Assembly (NCBI GenBank): GCA_963823555.1 | Contig: CAWGMA010000003.1 | Coordinates: 227,614 to 291,613, forward strand | Length of the DNA stretch: 64,000 nucleotides | Direction: 5' to 3' | From: Candidatus Eiseniibacteriota bacterium | GTDB taxonomy: Bacteria; Eisenbacteria; RBG-16-71-46; CAVPCR01 | In this document: positions 10,043 to 29,472 of the stretch, piece by piece | How the letters are laid out: each line of letters starts with the position of its first letter | How positions within the stretch are numbered: the first letter of the stretch is position 1 | Program-made: the position numbers and the translations under genes | The notes under the pieces: model-generated | The model's database searches: none | Told to the model about the DNA's origin: nothing | The model's input: only the letters and a program-made list of their open reading frames with translations

Positions 10043-10756
10043 ATGAAAACGATCCTTGCCATCTTCAAGCGCGAGTTCAAGAGCTACTTCCGCTCGCCCA
10101 TCGCTTACATCTTCATCAGCGCCTTCCTGATCGTGTCGGGGTGGTTCTTCTACCAGACCTTCTTCGTGATCGATTACGCGTCGATGCGGAACTACTTTGA
10201 CATCTTGCCCTGGCTTTTCCTCTTCTTCGTGCCCGTGGTCACCATGCGCCTGTGGGCCGAGGAGCGGAAGATCGGCACGATGGAAGTGCTCATGACATTG
10301 CCGGTGCGCGACCATGAGGCCGTGCTCGGCAAGTACCTGGCGGGTCTTGCGTTTCTTGCCGTCGGCCTCGCGCTCACCCTTCCCATCCCGCTCACCGTGG
10401 CCCGGTTCGGCGATCCCGATGTGGGCGTCATCGTGGCCGGTTACGTCGGCGGCATGCTGATGGGAGCGGCCTATCTGGCGATCGGGATCTTCGTCTCGAG
10501 CATGAGCTCGAACCAGATCGTGGCCGCCATCGTGGGCTGGGTGGTCTGTTTCATCCTCTTCTTCATCGGCAACGATCTGGTGCTCTTCAATGCCCCCAAG
10601 GCGGTGGTTCCGTTCTTCGACTATCTGGGGCTCGGCAACCACTTCGAGTCGATCGGGCGGGGCGTGCTGGATTCGCGTGATCTGATCTACTACGGGTCCG
10701 TGATCGCGTTCTTCCTCTTTCTGAATGTCCGCGTGATCGAGGCGCGGAAGGCATAG
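10043..10756 (+). CDS. ABC-2 family permease (GldF-like)
   Basis: 237-aa polytopic membrane protein directly after the ATPase. Its N-terminus is MKTILAIFKREFKSYFRSPIAYIF, as in GldF-type permeases. Confidence 0.75.
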   Translation: MKTILAIFKREFKSYFRSPIAYIFISAFLIVSGWFFYQTFFVIDYASMRNYFDILPWLFLFFVPVVTMRLWAEERKIGTMEVLMTLPVRDHEAVLGKYLAGLAFLAVGLALTLPIPLTVARFGDPDVGVIVAGYVGGMLMGAAYLAIGIFVSSMSSNQIVAAIVGWVVCFILFFIGNDLVLFNAPKAVVPFFDYLGLGNHFESIGRGVLDSRDLIYYGSVIAFFLFLNVRVIEARKA

Positions 10757-10802
10757 CCGCGCCGGGCGCGGTGAATGGTGGAATGGCTATGAGGTCGATG
10801 TC

Positions 10803-12458: not shown

Positions 12459-12525
12459 CGGATCGCGCCCGGGTCGGCGCCGGCGGGAGGTTTGCCGGCG
12501 GCCGGACAGGAGGAGTAGGCAGGAC

Positions 12526-13527
12526 ATGGAAGCTCGACAGATGCGCAACATGGCGCTCGTTCTCCTGGGTCTCTTGCTCGTCGCTCTGGTCCTGGAACAG
12601 CCGTGGTCGGGAGGAAAGAAGAAGACAGACGAGCTCTACCCCGATTTCAAAGCGGAAGAGATCGATCGTATCCACGTCGTGAATCGTGCCGATACCGTCG
12701 ATCTCGTGCTCCGCGATGGATTGTGGCTGATCGGCGGCCCACGCCCGTTGCCCGCCGATACCGCCTCGATCAACCGGGCGCTGGAGGCGGTCGACCGATT
12801 CGAGAAGACGCAGCTCGTGTCCAAGAACGCCGAGAAGTTCACGGTCTTCGAGGTCGATTCAGCGAGCGCGGCTCATGTCCAGCTCTATGCCGGCGGCGGT
12901 GATCCCGTCGTCGACATGCTCCTCGGCAAGTTCACCCCGGAGGGGGGCAACTACTTCCGTCCATCCGGCGAGGAGTTCGTCTATTCCTCCACCGATCGGG
13001 TCCGGGCCCTCTTCGCGCGCGATGCGCGCGCCTGGCAGGATCGGAAGATCTTCGATGTCGAGCCGGTTGACCTCACCAGGCTCATAGTCGAGCGCGGTGA
13101 TTCGACCATCGTCTTCGAGAAGGAGGCCGATGGCAGCTGGCTCCTCAAGGAGCCGCTCAGTTTCCCGGTGCGCACCGAAGAGATGGACAACCTTCTACGC
13201 AACGTGGCCAAGCTCATCGCCAATGCCTATCCCGATTCCGCGGTCACGGTGGCCGAGGCCGGGCTCGACAAGCCCAGGCTCCGGGTGCGGGCGGAGCGCC
13301 TCGACGGCACCGGGATCGAGCTCCTGGTCGGGGCGCAAGGCGGCAACGGGCTCTACTACGCCAAGGCCGCGGACCGCGACTGGATCTACGAGCTGGCGCC
13401 CTACCGCATCGATCCCTTCTACAAGGATCTCCTGAGCATGAAGGCCGAGGCGCCGCCGGCGCCTCCGGCAGGAGAAGCTCCGTCAGGCGATGCTCCGGCC
13501 GGCGGAGCGCCGGGCACGAGCGGATAA
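12526..13527 (+). CDS. DUF4340-like periplasmic protein
   Basis: Trimmed to the ATG at 12526 (MEARQMRNMALVLLGLLLVALVL), which is preceded by AGGAGGAG. It has a single N-terminal TM. Its position after the gldG-like gene is typical for DUF4340. Confidence 0.6.
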   Translation: MEARQMRNMALVLLGLLLVALVLEQPWSGGKKKTDELYPDFKAEEIDRIHVVNRADTVDLVLRDGLWLIGGPRPLPADTASINRALEAVDRFEKTQLVSKNAEKFTVFEVDSASAAHVQLYAGGGDPVVDMLLGKFTPEGGNYFRPSGEEFVYSSTDRVRALFARDARAWQDRKIFDVEPVDLTRLIVERGDSTIVFEKEADGSWLLKEPLSFPVRTEEMDNLLRNVAKLIANAYPDSAVTVAEAGLDKPRLRVRAERLDGTGIELLVGAQGGNGLYYAKAADRDWIYELAPYRIDPFYKDLLSMKAEAPPAPPAGEAPSGDAPAGGAPGTSG

Positions 13528-13572
13528 ACGGCTGCCGTCGAATCGATCCCGGCGCCACCTCGCCGGCGCGAG

Positions 13573-14874
13573 ATGATAAGGTCGCGCGCCATGAAGCGAG
13601 CATCGGGCATCGAGACGGGCGCGCAGCGCACCCACCCCTGGCGGTCGGGCCTCGCCGCGCTGGTGGTCTTGACCTCCATGGCCGTGTGGTCGCCGGCCGA
13701 GGTCTCCGCCTCCGATGATGCGAGTCCCGGCACGGAGGGTGCCGCCGACTCGATTCTTGTCGCCCTCGATCGCGATGCGCGCGAGGCAATGACCGGGCGC
13801 GACCTGGAGCGGCTCCTGGACCTCGGCGATGAGGCCCGGGTCTTTCCGGTCGGGATGGGGACCCCGCTCATCGAGGTCCTGGCGGCGGTCGCCGACCTTC
13901 GCGCCGGCAGCATCCCCGCTGCCGTCACGCGCCTCCGCTACGTCAGCCCGCTCGCCGTGGTGGCGGTCATTGCCGTCACCGCGCTGGCTGCGGTCCTCCT
14001 CGCCATCTGTCTCTATCTCCCGATCGCGCTCTTCGTCTGGGTGGCCGGCGAGCGCCGCATGGTCGCCGACCTGGCGGCGAGCACGTCCGGGGATGGTGAT
14101 GGCGTGCCTCCGGCCAAGTCCGACCGCGCCGCCCGGCGCGCCCTGGCCTCCTGGCGCGCTCCGCTCGGGCTCGGAGCCGGGCTCTTCCTGACCGCGATCG
14201 ACGATCTGATCGGTATCGGCGCCGCCTTCGCCATCGCCTGGATTGGCTTCGGCGCGCCCGAGTCGGTGCTGGCCATCGACGACATCACGCGTGCCGGGGC
14301 CATCTCCACGCTCGCCGGCACCGCAGCCGGCAACCTGGGGACGCTGCTCCTGGTCGCTTTCGTCTATCGCGCGCGGGGAGTGGGCATGGGTGGCGCCGGC
14401 CTGGCGCCGGTGTCCGCCCGCGACGTCCTGCGCCCGGCTCTTCTCCTCAGCGTGCCTCTGGTCATCCTCTCCGCAGCGCACGACCTCGCCTTCACGAAGA
14501 TCGTGGGCCGTGAACCACACTCGAACGCCGAGCCGTTGCTCGAGATGCTGCTCGGACCGGCCGGGGGAATGTTGGGTGTGGTGGCGGTCGCGGTCACGGT
14601 TGTCGTCACCGCGCCGGTCATCGAAGAGGTGGTCTATCGCGGGGTGATCTATCGGGCCTTTCGCGATCGCGCCGGGGTGCCGCTGGCGGTGTTCGCCTCG
14701 GGCTTCATCTTCGCCGTCGCCCACCTCGACATGGACCACGTGCTCCCGCTGTGGTGGATCGGGATGACCCTGGCGCTGGTGGTGGAGCGCACCGGATCGA
14801 TCATCCCCGCCATCGCGCTCCACGCCCTCTATAACGCGCTCTCGCTCATCCTCTACCTGATGGGACGGGTCTGA
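13573..14874 (+). CDS. CPBP (CAAX/Abi) family intramembrane metalloprotease
   Basis: The C-terminal motifs are EEVVYRG, FAVAHL and ALHALYNA. It is a multi-TM protein with a long N-terminal extension. Confidence 0.75.
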   Translation: MIRSRAMKRASGIETGAQRTHPWRSGLAALVVLTSMAVWSPAEVSASDDASPGTEGAADSILVALDRDAREAMTGRDLERLLDLGDEARVFPVGMGTPLIEVLAAVADLRAGSIPAAVTRLRYVSPLAVVAVIAVTALAAVLLAICLYLPIALFVWVAGERRMVADLAASTSGDGDGVPPAKSDRAARRALASWRAPLGLGAGLFLTAIDDLIGIGAAFAIAWIGFGAPESVLAIDDITRAGAISTLAGTAAGNLGTLLLVAFVYRARGVGMGGAGLAPVSARDVLRPALLLSVPLVILSAAHDLAFTKIVGREPHSNAEPLLEMLLGPAGGMLGVVAVAVTVVVTAPVIEEVVYRGVIYRAFRDRAGVPLAVFASGFIFAVAHLDMDHVLPLWWIGMTLALVVERTGSIIPAIALHALYNALSLILYLMGRV

Positions 14875-14884
14875 CTCCTGCGGA

Positions 14885-16960
14885 TCAGGGGGCGATGATC
14901 ACGCGCTGCGAAGCCTGGCGCCCTCCCGCGTCCAGGCTCAAGAAGTAGACCCCGGGCGCGAGATCGCGATTCAGCGTGAAACGATGGCTGCCGGCCGCCT
15001 GCATGCCCTGATCGATGCGCGCCGCCACCCTCCCCGTGACGTCCACCAGGCGGACGACGACCTCGAGCGGTCGATCGAGCGAGTACTCGACGGCAAACGG
15101 CCCCGGGGCCGGGTTGGGCCGGACCGGGGCGAGCTGGAAGGCCAGGGCGGGGGAGGCCACCGGGCCGGGCGTGGCCGTGGTCGGCGGATCCACCTCGACC
15201 GCGCCGCGGAGGATCCAGTAGTACGGGTCGAAGAGCACGGCAACCGGCTCCCCGCTCGCGGCGACTGCAAAGCTCTGCACGGCGAGACTGTCGGTGATCA
15301 CCGACCAGGTGGTGTCGCCGGCGGCACTGACGACGCCGATATCGATCGGCATCGTGAACGGCGGTGCATTGATCTGCACCTGCTCGACATGCAGGCTCAC
15401 CGCCCAGTCGCCGCCGCCCCGATCCACCGGCAGCCACCAGTAGGTGTAGAGCGGGCGGTTCACGCCGTAGATCCAGGGCATGAAGAACCAGTCGAGATCG
15501 GCGCCATGGATCGACTCGGCGAGGGCCTGGAAGTCCGCGGTCACGGCGTTCCCGTATGCGTACTGGATCGCCCACTGGCGGAGCAGCTGTTCGAAGGCGG
15601 CATCTCCCATCACATGGCGGAGCATGTGCAGCACCCACCCGCCCTTCTTGTAGACGGTGCTGCTGAAGAGGTAGGTCGGATCGTAGATCGGCCCCTGGAA
15701 GGAGCCGATGTCGAGCCCGCGCATGTAGAGGACATAGGCATCGAATCCCTGCACGGCCTCGACCCAGACCGCCTCGCTGTAGGTGGCGAAGCCCTCGTTG
15801 AGCCAGATATCCCGCCAGTCCCCGAGCGTGACGGAATCCCCCCACCACTGGTGGGACAGCTCGTGCGCCACGACCCAGTCATAGGAGTGGTCGCCGCGGG
15901 TGAGACCCGCCGAGTAGGTGGTGCAGGTCTGATGCTCCATGGCGCCGCCCCACTGGAACATCGCCATCCCGTACTTCTCCGCGAGGAACGGGTACTCCCC
16001 GAAACGGTCGGCGTAGATCTCGATCATGGGCACGGTGACGCTCCAGTCCTCCTGTGCCTGTGTGAGCCGCTCCGGATACGAGTAGAAGATGACCGGCATC
16101 GTGTCCTGGCTCGCCGAAATGTACTGGTCCTCGAAGACGGTGAAGTTGGTCGCGGTGACGCTCACCAGGTAGGTCGAGATCGGATAGATCTCCCGCCAGT
16201 GGTAGGTGATCTTGCCTGGGGCCGGCGCGGTGGTGCCGACGAGGAGGCCGTTCGAGGCGACGACCATGGTGTCGGGTACGGTGAAGTGCAAGTCCGCCGT
16301 GGCCTTGTCGTCCGGCACGTCCTTGCAGGGCCACCAGTTCCGCGCGTAGTTGGGCTCGGAGAGGGAGGCGGCGATCAGCGCGCCGTTGTGGGCTCCGAAG
16401 CCGAAGGCCAGGAATCCCCCTTGGGCCGGTTGCCCACCATAGGTGACCCGCACCGCGAACGGCTCGCCGGGGGCAAAGGGCCGGTCGAGGTTCACGGTGA
16501 GGAGGTTGTTGGCGTGAGTGTAGGGGAGCGGGATGCCGTCGCGGTCGACCGCGCTCACCACCATGGCGGGGTGCAGATCGAGGACGAGCGTCGTCAGGCT
16601 CGCCACGATGCTCTCGCTGGTCACCGTGAGGACGCCGCTGATCGATTCGCCGATGAAATCGATGTCGAGAGCGAGGTCATAGTGGAGGACATCGAAGTCG
16701 GTCTGACCCAGGGCCGGCTCGATGGACATCGGCTCGCGCTGCATCTCGAGGGCGTGCTTGGCATCGATCAGCGGGTGCGGTTCCTGGGGGAACAGCGCCG
16801 GATCAGCGAAGGGATGCAGCTCGAGCGGCGTGGCAAGAGCCGGTGGCGCGAGGAAGAGGGCCGTGGTCAGGGCGAGCGCCAGCGCGAGCGGGAGGACGGG
16901 CCACAAGAGTCGGATCCGGGAGGCGGATCCCGGACTGGGGCGCCGCGGAAGACCGATCAT
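14885..16960 (-). CDS. M1 family aminopeptidase with C-terminal sorting-type domain
   Basis: Contains GAMEHQ, HELSHQWWGD and WLNEGFATY (the HExxH-E gluzincin M1 signature) and a signal peptide. The last ~85 aa (VRPNPAPGPFAVEYSL...PGVYFLSLDAGG) resemble the FlgD-Ig/T9SS-type CTD. Confidence 0.85.
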   Translation of the reverse strand: MIGLPRRPSPGSASRIRLLWPVLPLALALALTTALFLAPPALATPLELHPFADPALFPQEPHPLIDAKHALEMQREPMSIEPALGQTDFDVLHYDLALDIDFIGESISGVLTVTSESIVASLTTLVLDLHPAMVVSAVDRDGIPLPYTHANNLLTVNLDRPFAPGEPFAVRVTYGGQPAQGGFLAFGFGAHNGALIAASLSEPNYARNWWPCKDVPDDKATADLHFTVPDTMVVASNGLLVGTTAPAPGKITYHWREIYPISTYLVSVTATNFTVFEDQYISASQDTMPVIFYSYPERLTQAQEDWSVTVPMIEIYADRFGEYPFLAEKYGMAMFQWGGAMEHQTCTTYSAGLTRGDHSYDWVVAHELSHQWWGDSVTLGDWRDIWLNEGFATYSEAVWVEAVQGFDAYVLYMRGLDIGSFQGPIYDPTYLFSSTVYKKGGWVLHMLRHVMGDAAFEQLLRQWAIQYAYGNAVTADFQALAESIHGADLDWFFMPWIYGVNRPLYTYWWLPVDRGGGDWAVSLHVEQVQINAPPFTMPIDIGVVSAAGDTTWSVITDSLAVQSFAVAASGEPVAVLFDPYYWILRGAVEVDPPTTATPGPVASPALAFQLAPVRPNPAPGPFAVEYSLDRPLEVVVRLVDVTGRVAARIDQGMQAAGSHRFTLNRDLAPGVYFLSLDAGGRQASQRVIIAP

Positions 16961-17186
16961 GGTTGAGGTATCTCCTCGTCAGGACGGTGATGGTCGGGAA
17001 AGCGTCCGAGGGACCCAGAACAGGCCATCGCCAGGTGGGGCCGCCGCCGGCGGTTGTTCGATATCTGGCTGGTGGGAGCGCACCACCATTATACACGAGC
17101 AGCCGGCCACGGCGCTGACCAGCAGAAGACCGTTCTGATTCAACCTGGAACAGGGCCTCAGCCGGGGCATTGCCCCCTCGTTCAGG

Positions 17187-17215
17187 TTGACGGCACTGCC
17201 GGGGGAGGGGAGAAT
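17187..17215 (+). promoter_or_regulatory. sigma70-like promoter candidate for the adhesin cassette
   Basis: TTGACG (17187-17192), a 17-nt spacer, then GAGAAT (17210-17215). The -35 overlaps the 3' arm of an inverted repeat (17139-17151 / 17180-17190). Confidence 0.35.
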
Positions 17216-17340
17216 TGATGCCGCGTTCGCGTCCCAGCACAGGAAAGCCTGGGAATCGCGCGACTTCACCCGCTGCTGCCACCGATGTTCGGGTGCCCCC
17301 GGCTGCGGGCGACGGAGTAACCACCACGCCCACAGACCTC

Positions 17341-18690
17341 ATGCTCGAGCGCATCAATCACCATCAACTCGGCGTCCACATCCTGAGCCTGTTCCTGGCC
17401 GTTTCCGTCTCGGCATGTGTCCCGGTCTACGAGCGGCGCCTGGAGCGCTACCGGGCCGGCGGCGACCTCGCTGCCGCCGAGCAACTCCTCGATTCGGCTC
17501 TGGAGGGGCATCCCGACAACCCGGACGTTCTGCGCGATAGCGGCATCGTCGCGTTCGAGCAGGGTGATCTGGATCAGGCGATCGATCGGCTGGCTCGTGC
17601 CCATGCGCTCGATCCCGATGACGGACGCACCGAGGTCTACCTGGCAGCCGCCTACGAGAGATCCTCCCGCTACGCTGAGGCCGCCGTCCACTATCGCCAC
17701 CTGGAGCACCGCGTGGTCGCCGGAGACGGGATCAGCGATTACGAAGCCGATCTCATTTGCCGGCGCAGCCTCGTCGAGTCGCAGTACGTGGCTGACCTCG
17801 TGGCGACGCGCCTGGCCGAGGAGAAGGCCGGAACCCTCCCTCCCGGCGACCGGCTGCTCATCCTGCCCTTCAGGCTGTATCAGGCGACGCCCGGCGCCCA
17901 GAGTCTCAGGCTCGGGCTGGCCTCGGTGCTGAGCGCTGACTGGAGGGCCGCGCCGTCACCGGAAGCGGTGCCTTTCGCCGAGGTCGAGGCTTTCATGACC
18001 GCGCTCGAGGTGCCTCTCGATGCGGTGATCGGCAACGACCTGCGCGATCGGCTGGCCCGCCTCACGGGGGCTCGTTACGTTCTCGACGGCACGCTGTCGG
18101 ATGTGGGAGAGGTCATCTCGGCGGCTCCCGTGCTCATCGACCTGAATGCCCGCTCCGCCGCTGGCGAGGACAACGCCTCGCCACGGGAGGTGCATCTCGA
18201 GTACCAGCAGGCACGCACCGGATCTCTCGTCGAGTTCGAGCAGACGCTGCTCTTCCACGTGACCCAGGCCCTCGAGATCGAGTTCTCGCCGGTGGATGAG
18301 GCAGGGATGAGGCGCTTCTCCTCCCAGAGCGGATATGCCATCGCTCTCTATGGTGAGGGTATGGCCCTCGAGCGGGCAGGAGACCGGGCGGCGGCAATGG
18401 AAAAGCTGGCCCAGGCCACCGCCCTCGATCCAGACTTCGCCGCGGCGCGGGAAGCCCAGCTGCGGCTCACGTCTTGTCGCGGAAAGGCGGGGGAGCCGGA
18501 GTCGGTCCTTCAAGCCTACGAGGTCGCGCTCGCGGACGCCCGAGCCCGCTCATCCGAACGCGACCTCCTTGCCCGCACCACGAACGAGGTGGGGCGAGTG
18601 GGCGGGCCCGCCGGAGATGGCGACAACTTCTCCATCAATCGCGCGGCGGGAGCCGGCTCGGCCGTGTTCCCGGTGCGGTTGCCGCGATGA
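17341..18690 (+). CDS. TPR-repeat lipoprotein with central CsgG/LpoB-like segment
   Basis: Trimmed to MLERINHHQLGVHILSLFLAVSVSAC (lipobox). TPR-like helices are present at both ends (DLDQAIDRLARAHALDPDD; DRAAAMEKLAQATALDPDF). The central part reads LLILPFRLYQ...GARYVLDGTLSDVG. Confidence 0.6.
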   Translation: MLERINHHQLGVHILSLFLAVSVSACVPVYERRLERYRAGGDLAAAEQLLDSALEGHPDNPDVLRDSGIVAFEQGDLDQAIDRLARAHALDPDDGRTEVYLAAAYERSSRYAEAAVHYRHLEHRVVAGDGISDYEADLICRRSLVESQYVADLVATRLAEEKAGTLPPGDRLLILPFRLYQATPGAQSLRLGLASVLSADWRAAPSPEAVPFAEVEAFMTALEVPLDAVIGNDLRDRLARLTGARYVLDGTLSDVGEVISAAPVLIDLNARSAAGEDNASPREVHLEYQQARTGSLVEFEQTLLFHVTQALEIEFSPVDEAGMRRFSSQSGYAIALYGEGMALERAGDRAAAMEKLAQATALDPDFAAAREAQLRLTSCRGKAGEPESVLQAYEVALADARARSSERDLLARTTNEVGRVGGPAGDGDNFSINRAAGAGSAVFPVRLPR

Positions 18691-19943
18691 TGGGCCCGAT
18701 GCGCGCATCACTCGCCCGGAGGCGGCCACAGCCGGCAGCTGAGATGGAAAGGCCCGGCCCTGGCTCGACGACGTGGGCCGTCATCATCTTCGGGCTTCAG
18801 CTCCTCGTCCTTGGGTCCACTGTGTCCTGGGCGGATTCCATCGTGCAGCGCGAGTTGCAGCCGTTCGATGTCGGTCCGACTCCGATCGGCGCCACCTCGA
18901 TCGATGTCGGTCTCAACTACCGCACCTGGTCCATCCAGCAGGAGAGCGGCGACTCGAGCGTCGATCAGTTCGCCGTACCCGTCTTCGTGCGCACATCGCT
19001 CACGAAGAGCCTCGATTTCTCCTACCTGTTCAGCGCCGCCTCCTCCGGCCTCTCCCTCGGTGCCGGTGAGGAAGGAACGCTCGAGGGTGTGACCGACGGC
19101 AAGCTCGGCGTCAACTACCTCCTCCCCGGCAATCGCGTCTCCCTCGGGCTCGGCGTGCGTGTGCCCACCGGCGAGAGCGTCCTCGATCCGCAGGAGGATG
19201 CGGTGGCCCGGGTCCTCAATGACCGCATCCTCGGATTCTGGGTGAAACGCTACGGGGAGGGCACCGATGTCGAGATGCGCGGCGGCTACTCGGCCGTCCT
19301 GGGGCGCGGCGTCGCCCTCGCGGGTGGTGTCTCCTACACCCTGAAGGGCGACTTCCCCTTCCAGGACCCCCTGTCCGGAGTCGAGGCCAACTACGAGCCT
19401 GGAGATGAGCTATCGGTTCTGGTCCGACTCGAGGCGCGGGCCATCGCCCGGGACTGGCGGACTCAGGTTCGTTTCGCCACGTACGGAACCGATCAGCGCG
19501 ACGGCGTGGACGAGATCCAGGAAGGGAGCGAGGTCGAGCTCGGCTTGACCATGGCCGAGGAGCATCTGGCGGGGGTCCTCGAGCTCGACGCGGGAGCGCT
19601 CTTCAAGCAAGACACCGAGATCGTGAGCGCCGAGGGCGCGTCTCCGGTCCGTGATGTCGGTGGCAATATCTTGCGAGTAGGAGGGGGATTCTACGGCAAG
19701 CTGAGCGCGGCGAGCCGTCTGGGCGGACGGGTCGGAGCCAGCTGGTACGGCGAAGCGAAAAGCGGCACGGGCGATGGTTTCGTGTTCGAGGTCGGTCCGC
19801 GCTACCGGCGGCAGTTCGGATCCGCCATCACTGCCGATCTTGCCTACACCTTCTATGCGGGTAATGCCGAGGACAAGACCATCGATTTGATCGGTCACGA
19901 CGTGACGATCGCGTTCGGACTCCTCGCCTGGGGCCGGCGATGA
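18687..19943 (+). CDS. putative outer-membrane beta-barrel protein
   Basis: The signal peptide is ...WAVIIFGLQLLVLGSTVSWA|DS. It is followed by a long run of alternating hydrophobic/polar short strands rich in G, Y and aromatic residues. The ATG at 18687 overlaps the upstream stop (ATGA); an alternative ATG is at 18744. No named family was recognised. Confidence 0.5.
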   Translation: MMGPMRASLARRRPQPAAEMERPGPGSTTWAVIIFGLQLLVLGSTVSWADSIVQRELQPFDVGPTPIGATSIDVGLNYRTWSIQQESGDSSVDQFAVPVFVRTSLTKSLDFSYLFSAASSGLSLGAGEEGTLEGVTDGKLGVNYLLPGNRVSLGLGVRVPTGESVLDPQEDAVARVLNDRILGFWVKRYGEGTDVEMRGGYSAVLGRGVALAGGVSYTLKGDFPFQDPLSGVEANYEPGDELSVLVRLEARAIARDWRTQVRFATYGTDQRDGVDEIQEGSEVELGLTMAEEHLAGVLELDAGALFKQDTEIVSAEGASPVRDVGGNILRVGGGFYGKLSAASRLGGRVGASWYGEAKSGTGDGFVFEVGPRYRRQFGSAITADLAYTFYAGNAEDKTIDLIGHDVTIAFGLLAWGRR

Positions 19944-20827
19944 GGGGGCCGCTGACCTCGCGGCGCGCCCTGCGCGCGGTCGCGCTCCTCGCCATCCTCA
20001 TCATCGGCGCCGACTGCGCCCACGATCCGGCCGTGGCCCCCATCGTGGCCCCTGGCGCCGTGTCCTTCGCCGTCCATGTGGTCGAGGGTCCACTGGCGCC
20101 CGCCGCGGGAGCTCCAGGTGTCCGGGGGGCGGCTCCCTGCGAGCCCGTACCGACCGGATTTCCGACCGAGGTCGAAGTCGAGATCGACCTCCGTTCCGAG
20201 GTCGGAGAGACGAGCACGCACACCTTCACGATCCCGGCGCGCACCGAGTCGAGTGACCTCGTCATCGGCGACCTGCCTCCGGGGAGTGGCTACTCGGCGC
20301 AGCTCACCGTGACGGCCCTCAAGGAGATCGTGTTCACGGGTCATGGCGGTCCGTTCGCCGTGCCCTCCGGGTCCAGACAGCGGATCGTCGTTCCGCTCTA
20401 CCCCACCGGCCGCCGGGCGGTGCTCGCGATCGGCGCGCCGCAGATCGCGGCCAATGACGAGATCGTGATCCCCGTCATGGCGTCCCACTCGGCGCCCGTG
20501 CGCGCGATCGAGCTCGATCTCTGCTTCGATTCGGCTCTCCTCGAGCCGCTCGGGGCTGCGGCGACGGGAACCAGGGTCGCCGCCTTCCGCGGCGCGGGCG
20601 GCCAGCCCGGGGTCCCCGGTCTCTACCGCGCCGTCTTGTGGTCGGAGGACGGCGCAGCCAGGATCGCCCCCGGCCAGGACGAGGTGCTCGAGATCCGATT
20701 CCGTTTCCGGCCGGAGGCGCCGGGCGACCTCGTGACCGATCTCATCTTCCAGGGCGCCATCTTCACCGATGCCGCGGCTGAGCCGCCCTTCACGGTCTAC
20801 TTCTTCGACGGCCAGGTGCGGCGATGA
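19940..20827 (+). CDS. lipoprotein with cohesin-like C-terminal domain
   Basis: The lipobox is LAILIIGADC. The C-terminal ~125 aa (IVIPVMASHSAPVRAIELDLCFDSALLEP...DEVLEIRFRFRPEAPGDLVTDLIFQG) follow the type I cohesin pattern. The start overlaps the upstream stop (ATGA). Confidence 0.55.
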   Translation: MRGPLTSRRALRAVALLAILIIGADCAHDPAVAPIVAPGAVSFAVHVVEGPLAPAAGAPGVRGAAPCEPVPTGFPTEVEVEIDLRSEVGETSTHTFTIPARTESSDLVIGDLPPGSGYSAQLTVTALKEIVFTGHGGPFAVPSGSRQRIVVPLYPTGRRAVLAIGAPQIAANDEIVIPVMASHSAPVRAIELDLCFDSALLEPLGAAATGTRVAAFRGAGGQPGVPGLYRAVLWSEDGAARIAPGQDEVLEIRFRFRPEAPGDLVTDLIFQGAIFTDAAAEPPFTVYFFDGQVRR

Positions 20828-23800
20828 GCGCGCGCCCCCACCGCATTCGTCCGGTGCTCGCGGTCTGGCTCGGCCTCCTCGCCGCGACCTGTTGCCTGGC
20901 TGCCTCCGCATGGGCGCAGTCGCCGCCGGTCGCCGATCCCGGCGGACCGTACTCCGGCAACGAAGGCCAGCCGATCGCCTTCGATGGAACGGGCTCCTTC
21001 GATCCGGACGGTGGCCTCCTCGGCTACGTCTGGGACTTCGGAGACGGGACCACCGCCACCGGTGCCACGCCGAGTCACACCTACGCCGCCGGCGGTCCCT
21101 TCGTCGTGACGCTCACGGTCACCGACCCCGAGTTCCTGACCGACGTCGCCACGACGACGGCCACGGTGAACCGGACGCCGGCCGCGAATCCGAACGGTCC
21201 CTATGCGGCCAACCTGGGCCAGCCGATCAGCTTCTCGTCGGCGGGGTCGAGCGATCCGGACGGCGATCAGCTCAGCTACCTCTGGGACTTCGGTGACGGA
21301 TCCACCGCCACGCAGCGCAATCCGAACCATACGTACTCGAGCGGAGGCATCTTCACGGTCACCCTCACCGTGACCGATCCCGGCGGGCTATCGGATGCAG
21401 GAACGACGACGGCGACGGTGAACCGCCCGCCGGTGGCGAATCCGAACGGTCCCTATACGGCCAACCTGGGCCAGCCGATCGCGTTCTCGTCGGCGGGCTC
21501 GAGCGATCCCGACGGCGACACGCTCACCTACCGGTGGGACTTCGGGGACGGCTCGACCTCGACTGCGGCCAACCCGACGAAGACGTACGCGACGGGAGGC
21601 GTGTTTGTCGTTCTCCTCCAGGTCATGGATCCGGGAGGGCTCACGAACCAGGTCTCGACGACGGCGACGATCAACCGGCCGCCGGTGGCGGAGGCGAACG
21701 GTCCCTATACGGCCAGCCTGGGGCAGCCGATCAACTTCTCGTCGGCGGGCTCGAGCGATCCCGACGGCGATACGCTCGCCTATCTGTGGAGCTTCGGGGA
21801 CGGGACGACGTCGACGCAGGCCAACCCGACGAAGACGTACGCGGTGGGTGGCGTGTACACGGTGACCTTGCGGGTGACCGATCCGGGCGGGCTCTTCGCC
21901 GAGGACACGGCCGAGGCCACGATCGCCCGCCCGCCGGTGGCGAACGCCAACGGTCCCTACACGGGGAACCAGGGGCAACCGATCGCATTCTCGTCGGCGG
22001 GCTCGAGCGATCCGGATGGCCAGGCGCTGACCTACCTGTGGACGTTTGGTGACGGGACGACCTCGACTGCGGCCAATCCGACGAAGACGTACGCGGTGGG
22101 CGGCGTGTACACGGTGACGTTGCGCGTGACCGATCCGGATCTCCTGTTCGATGAGGACACGACGACGGCGACGATCAACCGGCCGCCGGTGGCGGAGGCG
22201 AACGGTCCCTACACGGGGAACCAGGGCTCACCGATCGCATTCTCGTCGGCGGGCTCGAGCGATCCGGATGGCCAGGTGCTGACCTATCTCTGGACGTTTG
22301 GCGACGGGACGACCTCGACGCAGGCCAATCCGGCGAAGACGTACGTGGTGGGTGGTGTGTACACGGTGACGCTCAGAGTGACGGATCCGGGCGGGCTCTT
22401 CAGCGAGGACACGGCCGAGGCGACGGTGAACCGGCCGCCGGTGGCGGAGGCGAACGGTCCCTACACGGGGAACCAGGGCTCACCGATCGCATTCTCGTCG
22501 GCGGGCTCGAGCGATCCGGATGGCCAGGCGCTCACCTATCTCTGGACCTTCGGCGACGGGACGACCTCGACGGCGGCCAATCCGACGAAGACGTACGCCG
22601 TGGGTGGCGTGTACACGGTGACGCTCCGGGTGACGGATCCGGGCGGGCTCTTCAGCGAGGACACGGCCGAGGCGACGGTCAACCGGCCGCCGGTGGCGGA
22701 GGCGAACGGTCCCTACACGGGGAACCAGGGTCAGGCGATCGCGTTCTCGTCGGCGGGCTCGAGCGATCCGGAGGGCGGCGCGCTCACCTATCTCTGGAAC
22801 TTCGGAGACGGCTCGACCTCGACTGCGGCCAATCCGAGTCACACCTATGCGACCGGCGGCGTCTTCGCCGCAACGCTCCGGGTGACGGATCCGGGGGGGC
22901 TCTTCAGCGAGGACGCGGCTGCGGTCCGCGTGAACCGGCCGCCGGTGGCGGAGGCGAACGGTCCCTATACGGCCAGCCTGGGGCAGCCGATCAACTTCTC
23001 GTCGGCGGGCTCGAGCGATCCCGACGGCGACGCGCTCGCCTATCTGTGGACCTTCGGGGACGGGACGACCTCGACGCGGCCAATCCGACGAAGACGTACG
23101 CGGTGGGTGGCGTGTACACGGTGACCTTGCGCGTGACCGATCCGGGCGGGCTCTTCGCCCAGGATACGACGACCGCCACGATCGCCCGGCCGCCGGTGGC
23201 GAACGCCAACGGTCCCTACGCGGGGAACCAGGGCCAGCCGATCGCGTTCTCGTCGGCGGGCTCGAGCGATCCGGATGGCCAGGCGCTGACCTACCTGTGG
23301 ACGTTTGGCGACGGGACGACCTCGACGGCGGCCAATCCGACGAAGACGTACGCGGTGGGTGGCGTGTACACGGTGACGCTCCGGGTGACCGACCCGGATC
23401 TCCTGTTCGATGAGGACACGACGACGGCCACGATCAACCGGCCGCCGGTGGCGGAGGCCAATGGGCCCTACACGGGGAACGCGGGTCAGCCGATTGCATT
23501 CTCGTCGGCGGGCTCGAGCGATCCGGAGGGCGGTGCGCTCACGTATCTCTGGACCTTCGGCGACGGGACGACCTCGACGGCAGCCAATCCGGCGAAGACA
23601 TACGCGGTGGGTGGTGTGTACGCGGTGACGCTCAGAGTGACGGATCCGGGCGGGCTCTTCAACGAGGACACGGCCGAGGCGACGGTGAACCGGCCGCCGG
23701 TGGCGAACGCCAACGGTCCGTACGCGGGGAACCAGGGCTCACCGATCGCGTTCTCGTCGGCGGGTTCGAGCGATCCGGATGGCCAGGCGCTGACCTACCT

Positions 23801-26800
23801 TTGGACGTTCGGCGACGGGACGACGTCGACGCAGGCCAATCCGGCGAAGACATACGCGGTGGGTGGCGTGTACGCGGTGACGCTCCGGGTGACGGATCCG
23901 GGCGGGCTCTTCAACGAGGACACGGCGCAGGCGACGGTCAATCGCCCGCCGGTGGCCGAGGCCGGCCCGCCCTCGGCGCCGATCTACAACGGAGACCGCG
24001 GCGTCCCGATCGCGTTCTCGTCGGCGGGTTCGAGCGACCCTGACGGAGATGCGCTGACATATCTCTGGGAGTTCGGCGACGGGACGACCTCGACCCAGGC
24101 CAATCCGTCGAAGACCTACGCCCAGGGCGGCGCCTACACCGCGACCCTGCGCGTTCGCGACCCCGGGGGCCTGATCGGGACAGACACCGCCCCCGTGCTC
24201 GTGAACGACCTCGTCGTCACGGCGCCGGCGGCCGGAGTGGTGTGGTCGGAAGGCTCGACGCAGTCGATCCAGTGGACCGCGATCGGGTCGATCGGCCAGG
24301 TGGCCGTCGAGTACCGCCTGCGGCCCACCTCGACGTGGACGCTCATCGGCACCGCGCCGGCGGATGCCGGCTCTCTCCAGTGGCAGGTGCCGGACATCGG
24401 CAGTGCAGACGAGACCGGCGTCCTCGTCCGCGTCCGCCGCGCCGCGGATCCGCAGCTCGAGGACCGGAGCGATCCCTTCACGATCCGGAACCGCGTGCTC
24501 ACGGTCACCGCGCCGGCGAGCGGGGACTCCTTCTACGAGACGACGGTCACCGACATCAGGTGGACGAGTGTCGGATTCGTATCGCAGGTGCGGCTCGAGG
24601 TCCGCCTGTCGCCGACGGGCGCCTGGCAGCAGATCGCCGCCACCGAGCCCAACGACGGCCGCTATACCTGGACCGTGCCCGAAGTAGCGGCGACCCAGAA
24701 CCGCGCCCAGGTGCGCATCCTGGATGCCGCCGACACCCTGTCCACGCGGGACACGAGCGACGAGTTCACGATCCGCAACCGTTCACTCGCGATCTCGTCG
24801 CCGTCGGCCGGAGTCGTGTGGTCCGAGGCCTCCAGCCAGACGATCGAGTGGACGGTGAACGGGCCGGTGGGGGATGTCGCCATCGAATTCCGCCGGAACC
24901 CGCTCGAGATCTACCAGGAGATCGCGCGGCGGCCCGCGACCGATGGGAGCTATGTCTGGCTCGTGGCGGCGGTGACGCAGGATCAACCCCAGGCGCAGGT
25001 CCGGATCCGGGAGCTCGACCCGCGAAGCGATCCGATCAACAGCGAATCCCAGCTCTTCATCATCCAGAACCGCGCTCTCTCGATCGTCGATCCGGCACCG
25101 GGCAGCGAGATCTCGGAACGCATCCAGACGCCGATCACGTGGTCGAGCGCCGGACTCATCGACAACGTGCGGATCGAGTTCCGGCGCCGGCCCGCTGATG
25201 CCTGGGAGGCCGTTGCCGCCTCCGTGCCCAACTCCGGTTCCTACCAGTGGAACACGCCGGAGGTGGCGGCCGACGAGCCGGAAGCGCAGATCCGCATCAC
25301 GGATGTCGCGGTCGGCCCGGATCTCGCTCAGGCTCTGAGCCAACCCTTCACCCTGGTCAATCGCACGCTCACGCCGGTCCTGCCCGCGCCCGGGAGCATC
25401 GAGTGCGAGGCGGACACGGTTGCGATCGTGTGGGAGACGCGGGGTTCGGTTCCGACCGTGGACATCGAGTGGCGCATCGACCCCGATTCGGCCTGGAATC
25501 CGGTGGTCACGGCCGTTCCCAACACGGGGTCCGCCCTCTTCCCGACTCCCGATGTCCCGGCCACGAGCGATCAGGTTCAGCTGCGCGTGCGACAGGCCAC
25601 GGACCAGACCGTGACGGCTACCTGGTCACCGTTCACGCTCACCAATCGCGCCATCGCCTTCCTGCGCCCGGTAGGTGGCGAAACCTACACCGAGGGCGAT
25701 GCCGTGCCCGTGAGCTGGCTCTCCGACTGCATCGATTCGGTGCTGGTGGAAGCTCGCATTCGCCCCGGCGCGGCGTGGGTGCCGCAGGGGCCTGGAGTAT
25801 GGCCCAACACCGAGCAGATCATCTGGACCGTGCTCCGCGTCGACCAGGAGGAGAACGCAGTTCAGCTCCGGATCTCGGACGCCTCGGATCCAGGCGCGGT
25901 GCTCTCGGTGTCGAACCCGTTCACCGTGCTCAACCGCGTGCTCGACGTGGTGCGTCCGACGGTGACCGACAGCCTCTCGGAAACGACCACCTTCCGGATC
26001 GAATGGGACTGGGCGGGGACCCTGCAGCGGGTCTCGATCGACTACCGACTCGATCCAGCGCTCGACTGGGTGCCGATCACGAGCAACGTGGCGAACACGG
26101 GCAGCTACAACTGGCAGGTGCCGCTCGTGGATCGCGACTATCGCGCAGCCCAGATCCGCGTCACCGACACCAACAACCCGGGCGTCTTCGACGAGGGTGA
26201 TCCCTTCATCATCATGAACCGCGCTCTTTTGATCACGCGCCCGGCGGTGCTCGACACGCTCACCGAGACGGCGGCCGATACCATCCGCTGGTCGACGCGG
26301 GGGGAGGTGCCGGTGGTGACGGTGAGCTATCGCGAGAGCCCGAGCGATACCTGGCAGGTGATCGCCTCGGAGCAGCCCAACACCGGCTTCCTGCCGTGGG
26401 TGGTGCCCGCGGTCAACGGGGACGCGACCGCGGCCCGGGTGCGTCTCGACTACCCGGCGGCCCCGGAGGTGACGGTGGAGAGCGGTCCTTTCGTCATCCT
26501 CGACCGCGCCTTCCTCGTGCTCTCCCCGGCCGGCGGCGAGAGCTGGTCCGAGGCCACGACACAGCTCCTCCGCTGGCGCACCGTGGGTGAGATCGATTCG
26601 GTGCGGATCGAGCTCGTGCTGCCGGGAGGCGGCAGTCAAGTGCTCTTCCCCTCGACGCCCAATGACGGCGAGGAGCCCTGGCTCGTCCCCGAGCTCTCGC
26701 TCACGCTCCCCGGCGTGCGCATCCGCGTCATCGATCCGCGGCCGCCGTCGACCGGGGCCACGTCGCAGCCATTCACGCTCGTGAACCGTTCGCTCACCAT

Positions 26801-27989
26801 CACCGCTCCGGCGCCGGGCGCGCGCGTCGAGTGGCGTATCGGCTCCACGCAGGCGATTCGGTGGGCGACCGCGGGTGTCGTCGATTCGGTGTCGATCGAG
26901 CTCGGGCGTGATGGTCCGGTGGGATCCTTCGAGACCGTGGTGGCATCGACGCCCAATGACGGCGAGTTCCTCTGGCTCGTGACCGCACCCGAGACCTTCA
27001 ATGCCGTGCTGCGCATGCGCGGGGTGGGGGTCCCGGATGTGGTCGCCATCACCCCCAGCGTCTTCGCGATCTACGACCTGGTGCCACCCGATCTGTGCGC
27101 CGACTTCGACCATTCCGGGAGCGTCACGCTCGACGAGCTGGTGCGTGTCGAGAGCATCATCATCGGGGATGCGGTGGCCAGCGAGGCCGATTCACTGGCC
27201 GCGGATGGAACCCGTGATGCGCTCATCGACGTTCGCGACATTCTCTGCGGCGTCGATGACATGATCGCGGGGGAGATCGCCGGGCGCGGGCGGCCCTTCG
27301 TGGATGCCGGGTTCGAGGAGAGCGCGGCCCATGGCGCGCTCATTGCCCTCGGCCCGCCACCGGCGGCCGGGATCGTGCCGATCGAGATCACGACCGCGGA
27401 CCCGCTGGCCGGCCTCCTGGTGGCGGTGGAGGTCGAGGGGGGGAGCGCCGACCCCGAGCTGGGCCCCGACGGGGAGGGGCTGGTCATGGTCTGGACCGCG
27501 ACTGGACCCGGACGCCTGACGGCGACCGTGCGCCGCACACCCGGCGGCCCCGTGCTGGCCGCGGGAACGAGCTGGCCTCTCCAGCTGCGAGTGCGCGCCG
27601 CAGCGACCGGCGATGTGATGGTGCGCGTCACGCGCGCGGAGGCAGTGGGGGTCGATGCGAACCCGAAGCCGGTGCATCTCCTGGCCGGCGAGGCGGCGGT
27701 CCTCCCGCTCCAGGTGGCGCTCGGACAGAACCGGCCGAACCCGTTCAATCCATCGACCGTGATCCCCTTCGAGCTGCCGGCGGCAGCGCGGGTCGAGCTC
27801 CGGGTGCATGACGTGGGCGGACGGCTGATCAAGCGCGTGATCGACGGCGCCACGTTCCCGGCGGGCTACCACAGCGCGCGCTGGGATGGGCGGGACGAGC
27901 GCGGACTCACCGTGGCGAGCGGAGTGTATCTGGCCACGCTCCGCGCGGGAGGGGAGACCTTCACCCGCAAGATGATGGTGATCCGCTAG
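20824..27989 (+). CDS. giant (~2,388 aa) surface protein: 13 PKD + 10 Ig-like repeats + dockerin-like + cohesin-like + C-terminal sorting domain; interrupted by one frameshift
   Basis: Track ORFs 20824..23124 and 23046..27989 are one gene split at about 23077 by a missing base. It has a signal peptide (VLAVWLGLLAATCCLAASAWA). The motif W(D/T/S/N/E)FGDG(T/S)T occurs 13 times. Ten units end in F(T/I/V)(I/L/V)xNR. The dockerin-like segments are DFDHSGSVTLDEL and ADGTRDALIDVRDIL. The terminal domain is NRPNPFNPSTVIPFEL...SGVYLATLRAGG. Confidence 0.8.
20923..24206 (+). repeat. 13 tandem 252-bp (84-aa) PKD-domain coding repeats
   Basis: The unit boundary AACCGGCCGCCGGTGGC recurs, for example at 22177 and 22429 (252 bp apart). 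Neighbouring units share stretches of about 100 identical nt. Confidence 0.85.
24207..27060 (+). repeat. about 10 tandem ~285-bp (~95-aa) divergent Ig-like coding repeats
   Basis: The recurrent pattern is xxxPxxGxxWxxGxxxxIxW...G...V.IE(Y/F)R.....W..I....N.G.Y.W.VP......A.(V/I)R(V/I)......S..F.(I/L).NR. Confidence 0.7.
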
Positions 27990-28083
27990 CGCGCGCGGCC
28001 GTCGCTGCGATAGAATCCCGGCCCCCCTGGCCCCCTTGCCCTGGCCCCCGTCTGCGGCTCACTCCCGCATCGAGGAGCAGTCC

Positions 28084-28419
28084 ATGTCCGAGACTTACTA
28101 CAAGCCCGCCGACCTGTCGCGCTTTGCCGAGATGGGTGAGGGTGCCCCCGAGCTCTGGAAGAAGTACATGGAGTACTACTCTGCGGTGTTCGCCGAGGGG
28201 GCCCTCGGCGAGCGGGAGAAGTCCCTGATCGCGCTCGCGGTGGCCACCGCCGTGCAATGTCCGTACTGCATCGATGCCTACACCCAGGCCTGCCTCGAGA
28301 AGGGGTCGAACCTGGAGCAGATGACCGAGGCCATCCATGTCGCCAACGCGATTCGCGGCGGAGCATCCCTGGTGCACGGGGTGCAGATGAAGAACATCGT
28401 CTCCAAGCTGGGCATGTAG
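28084..28419 (+). CDS. AhpD/carboxymuconolactone-decarboxylase-like protein (arsenosugar-biosynthesis-associated peroxidase-like)
   Basis: Trimmed to MSETYYKPADL after GAGGAG. It carries the CxxC motif VQCPYCIDAY and sits immediately upstream of the ArsS-type radical SAM gene, the usual pairing. Confidence 0.7.
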   Translation: MSETYYKPADLSRFAEMGEGAPELWKKYMEYYSAVFAEGALGEREKSLIALAVATAVQCPYCIDAYTQACLEKGSNLEQMTEAIHVANAIRGGASLVHGVQMKNIVSKLGM

Positions 28420-28428
28420 GGCGGGCGC

Positions 28429-29472
28429 ATGGTGAATTCCGTCTTGAGCCTCAAGCGCCGCGAGAGTCCGCTCGCCGATCCCCGCCACCAGCGGGAAATC
28501 CTCGCCGGGGCGAACGGTCTCCCGCGCTTCGAGGACAAGCTCCGCCGGGTCGGTCTCTGGCCCCTCCGCACCACGCAGATCCAGGTCATGCAGATCAACC
28601 TCGGCAAGCTCTGCAACCAGACCTGCCGGCATTGTCATGTCGACGCCGGTCCGGACCGCCGCGAGACAATGAGCGCGGAGACCGCCGCAGCGTGCCTGCG
28701 CGTGTTGAGCGAGACCGAGATACCGATCGTGGACCTCACCGGCGGTGCGCCGGAGCTCCATCCCGCCTTCCGCCCTCTGGTCCACGGTGCGCGAAAGCTC
28801 GGCCGTCATGTCATCGATCGCTGCAACCTCACCGTCCTCAATGTGGAGCCGCAGTCGGACCTGATCGCCTTCCTGGCCGCGAACGAGGTGGAGATCATCG
28901 CCAGCTTGCCCTATTACCAGGAGCGCCAGACCGACGCGCAGCGCGGGGATGGGGTCTTCGCGAGTTCGATCCGCGCTCTCGAGCGGCTGAATGAAGCCGG
29001 ATACGGCCGGGGGAGCGGGCTCCGCCTGACGCTCGTCACCAACCCGGTCGGCGCTTTCCTGTCGCCGCCGCAGGAGAGTGTCGCGGCCGACTTCAAGCGC
29101 GAGCTCTCCCGTCGCCACGGGATCGCCATCGACGGCGTCTACACCATCACGAACATGCCGATCAGCCGCTTCCTCGATTTCCTGATCGAGAGCGGCAACT
29201 ACGAAGGCTACATGCAACGGCTGATCGACGCCTTCAACCCCCTGGCCGCCGAGTCGGTGATGTGCCGCAGCATGATCTCCGTGGGCTGGGACGGTCAGCT
29301 CTACGACTGCGATTTCAACCAGATGCTCGAGCTACCGGTCGAAGCCGGCGCCGGCCGGGACATCCTCGATTTCGATCTCGCGCGTCACGAGGGGCGGGCG
29401 ATCGTCACTTCACGGCACTGCTTCGGCTGTATCGCCGGGGCCGGCTCGAGCTGCGGCGGAGCCACGGCCTGA
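28429..29472 (+). CDS. arsS: radical SAM / Cys-rich domain protein, ArsS (arsenosugar biosynthesis) family
   Basis: The radical SAM cluster motif is CNQTCRHC (CxxxCxxC). The C-terminal Cys-rich part reads CRSMISVGWDGQLYDCDFNQ...SRHCFGCIAGAGSSCGG. Confidence 0.75.
   Translation: MVNSVLSLKRRESPLADPRHQREILAGANGLPRFEDKLRRVGLWPLRTTQIQVMQINLGKLCNQTCRHCHVDAGPDRRETMSAETAAACLRVLSETEIPIVDLTGGAPELHPAFRPLVHGARKLGRHVIDRCNLTVLNVEPQSDLIAFLAANEVEIIASLPYYQERQTDAQRGDGVFASSIRALERLNEAGYGRGSGLRLTLVTNPVGAFLSPPQESVAADFKRELSRRHGIAIDGVYTITNMPISRFLDFLIESGNYEGYMQRLIDAFNPLAAESVMCRSMISVGWDGQLYDCDFNQMLELPVEAGAGRDILDFDLARHEGRAIVTSRHCFGCIAGAGSSCGGATA

Follow-up and report, generated by a model that had tools for sequence, protein, structure and literature searches.

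Two of the described systems closest to the locus reported here serve for comparison. The sprCDBF-type loci of Flavobacterium johnsoniae encode SprB, a giant type IX secretion system (T9SS) adhesin, together with a dedicated barrel of the PorP/SprF family; to our knowledge, SprB anchoring involves no cohesin or dockerin. Cohesin-dockerin pairs are mainly regarded as the cellulosome glue of Gram-positive bacteria. For Cloacimonadota, earlier work inferred a scaffoldin-like protein that bears a C-terminal sorting domain (CTD) and is accompanied by dockerin-tagged enzymes (PMC8542988; Peer et al. 2009 as cited there). We analyzed a 64-kb stretch of DNA from a Candidatus Eiseniibacteriota bacterium (contig CAWGMA010000003.1; hereafter the window, whose positions are used throughout), in which four genes on one strand (g1 to g4; 17341-27989) appear to encode a lipoprotein with tetratricopeptide repeats (TPR), an outer-membrane barrel, a secreted cohesin-like protein, and a giant protein with a dockerin-like tail. 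We give an even chance to the proposal that these genes form an operon building a dedicated outer-membrane mounting platform for one giant adhesin by means of a non-cellulosomal cohesin-dockerin contact. A literature search for the cassette found no published description, and the g1 to g3 homologues are annotated as "hypothetical" in public databases.

The cassette differs from the known non-cellulosomal cohesin-dockerin and SprB/SprF systems and looks undescribed. Like the Cloacimonadota system, it places cohesin- and dockerin-like modules on secreted proteins of a non-cellulolytic organism in the Fibrobacteres-Chlorobi-Bacteroidetes (FCB) superphylum and carries a T9SS-type CTD for presumed surface attachment. 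Unlike that system, it has neither dockerin-bearing enzymes nor a multi-cohesin scaffoldin. Instead, the g4 tail combines a single dockerin with a single cohesin fold, and genes for a barrel and a CsgG-like lipoprotein accompany that of a separate one-cohesin protein (g3); the modules in the window are too diverged for Pfam thresholds. As with SprB and SprF, the gene of a very large repetitive adhesin that ends in a T9SS-type sorting domain adjoins those of a dedicated outer-membrane barrel and accessory envelope proteins. Unlike SprB, the g4 tail is type-A-like rather than type B, and g2 gave no match to PorP/SprF (PF11751 / TIGR03519) in Pfam and NCBIfam, which are expected to hold these models, at E values up to 0.1.

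All four genes lie on the forward strand: g1 (17341-18690, 449 aa), g2 (18687-19943, 418 aa), g3 (19940-20827, 295 aa), and g4 (20824-27989, 2,388 aa once one base is restored, as described below). An earlier sequence-only reading of this DNA had joined them by ATGA overlaps, and all three junctions are indeed gcgATGA stop/start overlaps at the open reading frame (ORF) positions it gave. The overlaps at the g1/g2 and g2/g3 junctions are also present in the related contigs L003, L004, and L006. The GC content at third codon positions (GC3) is 0.80 to 0.88 in the proposed frames; upstream of the starts chosen for g1 and g2, the ORF extensions reach only ∼0.6, in support of this choice. The sole intergenic gap, upstream of g1, holds the promoter-like element TTGACG-N17-GAGAAT (17187-17215, forward strand). 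While this element is present as claimed, it is statistically unremarkable: it is the single sigma-70-like match in 16900-28300 (11.4 kb), where 0.6 would be expected by chance, and the promoter type of this phylum may differ. The site is thus not significant alone, although its position is suggestive. No terminator-like sites were found between the cassette genes or at their ends. We infer that the four genes form one operon, co-transcribed and with coupled translation.

The main result linking the four genes is their conservation. Hidden Markov models (HMMs) of the four cassette parts were run over all fetched loci. The closest g2 relatives are metagenomic (42 to 65% identity) and include metagenome-assembled genomes (MAGs) named Candidatus Eisenbacteria and Eiseniibacteriota. 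The order g1-g2-g3 is kept in all Eisenbacteria contigs that are long enough (L001, L003/L004/L007, L005/L008, L006, L012, L013, L014, and L016), and g4 follows g3 wherever the contig extends; a metagenome scan yielded five further contigs, all short. All four families are also clustered in MAGs of KSB1 (contig L009) and Caldithrix (contig L010), there in the order g1-g2-giant-g3, preceded by a second CsgG-TPR lipoprotein. The homologues of g2 at these two loci are matched at 25 to 29% identity, and the giant (∼1,670 aa) carries fn3 repeats instead of PKD repeats ahead of a tail like that of g4. In hhalign, the g3-like protein of these loci (310 to 321 aa) matches the g3 family with 64% probability and an E value of 6.6e-5 across 197 columns; the g3 HMM retrieves the KSB1 copy at an E value of 6e-8, and the Caldithrix copy shows a weak Pfam Cohesin match (E = 0.005). 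Because the set survives reordering, the exchange of PKD for fn3 repeats, and phylum-level divergence, functional linkage of the genes is favored over inherited order. Taken together, the recurrence of these genes in three phyla is good evidence for such linkage, and the co-occurrence in related genomes on which the sequence-only reading had staked its proposal was borne out strongly.

The putative cohesin-dockerin contact is suggested by the g4 tail, which starts with a dockerin-like module, continues with a sandwich of cohesin fold, and closes with a type-A-like sorting domain. A word-based homologue search with this tail retrieved one 95%-identical fragment, and an HMMER search with the residues encoded by 27066-27725 retrieved nine representatives, seven of which are family members; as the representative search was exhaustive, the tail family appears to be small. 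The dockerin-like module (27078-27290, forward strand) comprises two Ca-loop/helix (F-hand) segments, located where two EF-hand-like segments had been noted by eye. Loop 1 reads DFDHSGSVTLDE and loop 2 DGTRDALIDVRD, and their starts are 34 residues apart, the same spacing as in the dockerins of P0036, an unrelated protein among the nine representatives that has eight Pfam-verified Dockerin_1 repeats. Throughout the family, Ca-ligand positions D13, E24, D47, D51, and D58 do not vary, and two Cys residues flank the module, the first invariant and the second present in five of eight profile sequences.

The assignment of this module as a dockerin stood in part. Window g4 gave no Dockerin_1 (PF00404) match in Pfam or NCBIfam at E values up to 10, just EF-hand (E = 0.04). 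The loop pattern and two comparisons nevertheless favor a dockerin. First, the g4 dockerin profile aligns with the eight P0036 repeats over 51 ungapped columns, with both Ca loops in register (hhalign, 93.7%; E = 1.9e-7). Second, the KSB1 orthologue, whose tail is collinear with g4 residues 2099-2388 (E = 6.5e-15), scores 26.5 bits for Dockerin_1 (threshold, 22.9) at the position aligned to the g4 module, and its tail also exceeds the Pfam thresholds for FlgD_ig (43.5 bits) and Por_Secre_tail (28 bits). When PDB sequences were searched with the dockerin profile, dockerins and EF-hand proteins matched weakly (E above 0.4), and the top match, a designed repeat protein, was spurious.

Directly after the dockerin-like module, the AlphaFold2 (AF2) model of the tail contains a β-sandwich (27282-27719, forward strand; predicted local distance difference test [pLDDT] ∼70 to 80; ∼80 for the CTD; 64.8 for the tail overall). 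Cohesins lead its Foldseek matches, with the cohesin-FN3 pair 2w1n on top (E = 9.5e-9), which mirrors the arrangement of sandwich and CTD. Single cohesins match with TMt values of 0.5 to 0.67 and root mean square deviations of 3.7 to 5 Å (2xdh, TMt 0.67; 2jh2, TMt 0.65 at 3.7 Å), and 6kgf, 3fnk, and 2b59 are further cohesin matches. The cohesin-like module claimed for g4 was therefore recovered as a fold: Pfam and the PDB sequences returned no match for it, and hhalign against the g3 family gave 14.7%. With a model of moderate confidence, we regard the g4 internal module as having a cohesin fold.

The tail ends in a T9SS type-A-like sorting domain (27720-27986, forward strand) with a QNRPNPFNP motif and an FlgD_ig fold. 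Of the T9SS/FlgD-Ig assignment made earlier, the FlgD_ig part exceeds its threshold (33 to 35 bits; threshold, 27), while TIGR04183 falls short (21.6 bits; cutoff, 23). Por_Secre_tail (PF18962) scores 14 bits in window g4 (threshold, 27) and 28 to 33 bits in the KSB1 and Caldithrix orthologues, the former of which is named "T9SS type A sorting domain-containing protein" by NCBI. A PDB sequence search with the g4 tail returned FlgD matches only, and Foldseek of the tail model also matched the PorU CTD.

The candidate partner of the g4 dockerin is g3. In this protein, a conserved Cys at the signal peptide end precedes a β-rich N-terminal domain, and residues 162-282 (nt 20423-20785, forward strand) make up a cohesin-like C-terminal domain. 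Eight homologues, all unannotated, were found among 5.8 billion clusters. Pfam Cohesin (PF00963) scores 16.1 bits on window g3 (E = 0.013; gathering threshold, 24.1) and matches 9 of 12 family members, with a best E value of 3.7e-5. Cohesin alone is recurrent; the sole other family, DUF3666, matched one member (E = 0.35). Likewise, the g3 family profile returned two PDB sequences, both cohesins (1g1k and 2vn5; E ∼ 0.07). The signal for a cohesin-like domain in g3 is weak but convergent, in line with the earlier call of a C-terminal cohesin, whereas describing g3 as a clear lipoprotein was an overstatement. Its lipobox is non-canonical: position -1 is occupied by D in window g3 and by R in the majority of homologues (GGC in two homologues only). 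Thus, g3 is best described as a secreted protein that is possibly a lipoprotein. The C-A-D-D mature start of most g3 homologues resembles the acidic lipoprotein export signal that directs Bacteroidota lipoproteins to the surface, which we treat as a lead only. Both putative lipoproteins at the Caldithrix locus (L010 8613-8700 and 16182-16260) have Asn at lipobox position -1 (FFNC and LLNC), which may be a lineage-specific variant.

The giant protein itself required a correction. As given, g4 is not one open frame: a frame at 20824-23124 (766 aa, then a stop) is followed by a frame-shifted one at 23046-27989 (1,647 aa). The break lies in the repeat array, where a 1-nt deletion near 23076/23077 causes a -1 frameshift. 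The PKD unit from 23059 reads ACGCGGCC, and neighboring units read ACGGCGGCC or ACGCAGGCC; in wider context, the same repeat reads ...TCGACGCGGCC... versus ...TCGACGGCGGCC... or ...TCGACGCAGGCC... in its neighbors. The spacing from this unit to the next PKD unit is 251 nt, not 252, and with one base restored g4 spans 2,388 aa free of internal stops. Because the 1,647 codons downstream of the shift stay open (GC3, 0.88) and L003 has a g4 orthologue that is intact as an ORF of 2,721 aa, we suspect that the base was lost through faulty assembly or basecalling or else through a very recent mutation. An indel arising in assembly or basecalling is plausible in view of the repeat array, for which Tandem Repeats Finder gave a period of 252 nt and 11.8 copies at 82% identity. 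A pseudogene was considered and judged unlikely on the grounds of the same open codons and intact orthologue. Thus, the size of ∼2,388 aa and the repeat counts proposed earlier are right after frame correction, but the single frame was not, and the frameshift had been missed.

Behind a predicted signal peptide (20824-20916, forward strand; AWA|Q), corrected g4 comprises 13 tandem PKD domains (20920-24200, forward strand) with a 252-nt period and 13 WxFGDG motifs; PKD_4 scores 620 bits plus 299 bits. These are followed by 10 tandem Ig-like units of ∼95 aa each (24201-27065, forward strand) that are Kre9_KNH-like (Pfam Kre9_KNH, 46.5 bits). The predicted signal peptidase site, AWA|QSPP (20914-20922; ARA|QSPP in L003), leaves an N-terminal Gln and recalls the Bacteroidetes "Q-rule". 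The paper describing this rule states that it is not general to the FCB group as a whole (PMC5837995).

The second gene has no match to a described sequence family: g2 matched nothing in Pfam, NCBIfam (E values up to 0.1), or PDB sequences. Its AF2 model, built with 19 homologues, is an all-β barrel of ∼16 to 18 strands behind a signal peptide (pLDDT, 77.8; predicted template modeling [TM] score, 0.72), and both the signal peptide and the barrel predicted earlier from strand periodicity were thereby recovered. Foldseek matched the model with a probability of 1.0 to many outer-membrane barrels, including OccK/OprD, CymA, FapF, and BcsC. Since no match exceeds a TM score of 0.48, no particular barrel family is indicated, and g2 models as an outer-membrane β-barrel outside the described families. 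Its most conserved segments, residues 174-196 (LNDRILGFxVKRYGEGTDVE) and 320-330 (PVRDVGGNILR), are the two long loops of the model; the remaining loops are short. Judging from general porin architecture, these loops would face the lumen or the exterior and have a conserved partner.

The first gene was read as a lipoprotein with TPR-like helices around a CsgG/LpoB-type segment, and this description fared well. The g1 lipobox (VSAC) is canonical, and Cys26 is invariant among homologues, as are many central residues. Pfam and NCBIfam place TPR at both ends of window g1 (residues ∼30-121 and ∼329-403) and, besides a sub-threshold TPR_Slam, nothing else. The central domain (residues ∼165-260; nt 17833-18120) was assigned through homologues: in the window protein itself, Pfam gave no CsgG match, and the LLILPF...GARYVLDGTLS segment matched neither Pfam nor PDB sequences. 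The g1 HMM finds full-length homologues in the KSB1 MAG (L009:8460-9812; E = 2.5e-39) and the Caldithrix MAG (L010:8613-9887; E = 1e-29), and in these Pfam CsgG matches at the collinear position with 40.5 and 30.9 bits, respectively (threshold, 20.8), alongside weaker LpoB and FlgO matches. Transitive homology via these threshold-passing orthologues supports a CsgG/LpoB-like core for g1, and the identification of g1 as an outer-membrane lipoprotein combining TPR and a CsgG/LpoB-type domain is thus supported. Like CsgG, LpoB, and FlgO (PF03783, PF13036, and PF17680), the g1 orthologues have the N-terminal α/β half, and g1 is predicted to be lipidated. That half is all that is matched (CsgG profile positions ∼10 to 100 of 210), the transmembrane hairpin region being outside the match, which argues that g1 is not a CsgG channel. 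Unlike CsgG, which forms its own 36-strand channel, the g1 domain sits between TPR arrays, and the barrel with which it is paired is a separate monomer.

Nearly all by-eye domain calls of the sequence-only reading therefore held up under testing, and they can be assembled into the mounting platform that we propose. After crossing the inner membrane by Sec, g4 would reach the surface by the general CTD-protein route of the lineage, presumably T9SS, and extend outward from the cell with its ∼23 Ig-type domains (13 PKD and 10 Kre9-like). Close to the membrane, its tail would present a Ca-dependent dockerin and the cohesin-fold module just ahead of the sorting domain. The cell-bound receptor would be g3, whose cohesin-like domain would bind the g4 dockerin. 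The g2 barrel would hold g3 at the outer membrane or pass g3 through it, and g1, with its TPR and its CsgG/LpoB-like oligomerizing domain, would organize the periplasmic face. We infer the dockerin-cohesin pairing, the surface exposure of g3, a physical g1-g2-g3 complex, and the T9SS dependence of g4. Tethering of the giant protein to a cohesin lipoprotein at a barrel, or its polymerization through its own cohesin, had been suggested in the sequence-only reading; the component domains and the gene linkage are compatible with tethering, and export is not separable from anchoring.

Other CTD-tagged proteins in the window bear on the specificity of this platform. An M1 peptidase (14885-16960, reverse strand) and a 1,046-aa protein with no other Pfam domain (58236-61376, forward strand) each carry an FlgD_ig/Por_Secre_tail sorting domain, a tag that appears to act in this genome as a general sorting signal. 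Because both lack g1 to g3 partners, g1 to g3 appear to be specific to g4, and their role as general CTD-export machinery is ruled out. No T9SS core component (SprA, PorK/L/M/N, or PorU/V) was found among the Pfam/NCBIfam-scanned subset of the ORFs in the window, which spans 64 kb of an 852-kb contig, and a literature search on T9SS in Eisenbacteria or Calditrichota found nothing specific. A more far-reaching form of the proposal, which we regard as rather doubtful, is that the g1-g2 pair is the core of a new outer-membrane apparatus of FCB-group phyla (Eisenbacteria, KSB1, and Calditrichota) that exports and holds g3, which captures the g4 dockerin. Such an apparatus would be distinct from, and possibly replace, attachment via PorU/PorZ/anionic lipopolysaccharide (A-LPS) where a classical T9SS is undemonstrated.

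Several observations weigh against the mounting platform. In this assembly g4 is frameshifted. The window's own dockerin and both of its cohesin-like modules are under Pfam thresholds, and the dockerin part of the AF2 tail model is unreliable (pLDDT below 50). With its non-canonical lipobox, g3 may reside on either side of the outer membrane. In a distant Eisenbacteria locus containing a g2 paralogue (L011 25-3108), a g2-like barrel is encoded along with two other proteins, one with a CsgG domain and one of the CsgG-TPR kind; no giant CTD gene lies downstream, where the genes are on the opposite strand, and the contig ends just upstream of the first gene. As L011 pairs CsgG-like proteins with a barrel in this way, a more general role for the g1-g2 pair is possible, and the lipoprotein-barrel pair may be an older, more general module. 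Finally, the Caldithrix abyssi genome paper reports no Bacteroidetes-type gliding machinery (PMC5317091).

This last report keeps alive an alternative in which T9SS plays no part: g1 and g2 would form a dedicated translocon, comparable to the curli CsgG channel, Slam/type 11 secretion (T11SS), or PelB-PelC, that moves g3 or g4, with the cohesin-dockerin contact made only after export. We consider this unlikely. The CsgG domain of the g1 homologues would suit a channel, but what is matched is the periplasmic α/β part and not the transmembrane hairpins. As in Slam systems, TPR and a barrel are encoded beside a putative lipoprotein cargo (g3), and TPR_Slam recurs at 23 to 26 bits in the g1 homologues of the window, L010, and L011, as well as in the adjacent kinase in L009. 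These scores are below the cutoff of 35.2, however, and unlike Slam, in which TPR and a DUF560 barrel are fused, the cassette encodes them as separate polypeptides. The g2 barrel is wide and its conserved segments are loops placed like pore loops, but no DUF560/Slam, FapF, or TpsB signal was found in g2 by Pfam, NCBIfam, and PDB sequence searches. A translocon would also agree with the CsgG-CsgG-barrel triad of L011, which has no adjacent giant gene. On the other side, the CTD tag of g4 is common to unrelated window proteins without such partners, implying a general CTD pathway.

A second alternative retains the contact but moves it into g4. The dockerin of one g4 molecule would bind the cohesin fold of the next, giving fibers or a matrix for which g3 provides only the basal cohesin, as in an anchoring scaffoldin or in pilus-like head-to-tail polymerization. 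The dockerin and cohesin fold are adjacent in one tail, an adjacency that is conserved in the Eisenbacteria g4 family and collinear in the KSB1 orthologue, and the cohesin-like modules of g3 and g4 resemble each other only distantly, as would fit differing specificities. With the g4 dockerin and cohesin fold ∼10 residues apart in one chain, though, an intramolecular contact, auto-inhibitory or structural, is equally plausible, and the window yielded no further dockerin or cohesin. Self-assembly of g4 thus strikes us as decidedly unlikely.

Still less credence goes to the absence of any specific pairing, which we judge very unlikely. In that case, the "dockerin" would be a Ca-binding, stabilizing EF-hand pair, the "cohesins" would be generic β-sandwiches, and g1 to g3 would be kept beside g4 through co-regulation or descent only. 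The cohesin and dockerin scores of the window proteins are all below curated thresholds, jelly-roll sandwiches are common folds, and the AF2 tail model, as noted, is only moderate. Against this, independent searches converge on cohesin alone, the dockerin register and 34-residue loop spacing are those of true dockerins, with an orthologue over the Pfam threshold, and the gene set survives rearrangement across phyla. Finally, an exopolysaccharide export gate made of TPR and a barrel (AlgK/AlgE, PelB/PelC, BcsC, or PgaA type) with g4 as an unrelated neighbor is extremely improbable and was rejected: the TPR of the cassette are weakly similar to those of PgaA, BcsC, and PrsT, and BcsC is among the Foldseek barrels, but these TPR scores stay well short of the family cutoffs, neither a polysaccharide synthase nor a glycosyltransferase was found in or next to the cassette at any locus (the flanks encoding an ABC transporter, an Rce1-like protease, an M1 peptidase, a CMD protein, and a radical SAM protein), and the trend so far links the cassette to the giant CTD protein rather than to exopolysaccharide genes.

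The surroundings of the cassette were also surveyed. Upstream, block 8753-14874 encodes a GldA/GldF/GldG-like ABC transporter, a DUF4340 protein, and an Rce1-like (CPBP) protease, and the divergent M1 peptidase with its similar sorting domain lies between this block and g1. The block is syntenic in Eisenbacteria, complete in L003 (450-6127) and L006 (99-5744) and cut at the contig end in L005 (1-3606). Directly after g4, a CMD-family gene and a radical-SAM/DUF3641 gene (28036-29472) are unrelated to the cassette and not kept there in L003; an inositol monophosphatase is also encoded downstream. A large Big_5/fn3 protein (61867-64000, forward strand) runs off the window end. The ORFs scanned, which were those flanking the cassette and the largest in the rest of the window, include no glycoside hydrolase, as the sequence-only reading had stated for the vicinity.

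The flanks of the KSB1 and Caldithrix cassettes encode three Ser/Thr kinases that carry TPR or PEGA domains, in addition to the second CsgG-TPR lipoprotein, and a protein combining FHA and FliN_C, with a weak FliM match in the KSB1 copy, is encoded downstream (flanks at L009 6-7710 and 17678-19240 and at L010 278-8352 and 17188-18906). These genes hint at phospho-regulation of the system in these two lineages.

Next to nothing has been described of how giant adhesins are retained on the diderm outer membrane outside Bacteroidota. A compact four-gene cassette found in three phyla provides a concrete, testable model of surface mounting, and it contains two protein families that have so far been only "hypothetical". 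Its minimal parts (barrel, lipoprotein, cohesin receptor, and dockerin tag) could serve for heterologous expression and possibly for surface display. The cassette also touches on the wider question of what role the very common FlgD_ig/Por_Secre_tail tag plays in phyla without a demonstrated T9SS. If the g1-g2 apparatus exists in the far-reaching form considered above, a cohesin-dockerin "handshake" would be used for cell-surface mounting in diderm bacteria.

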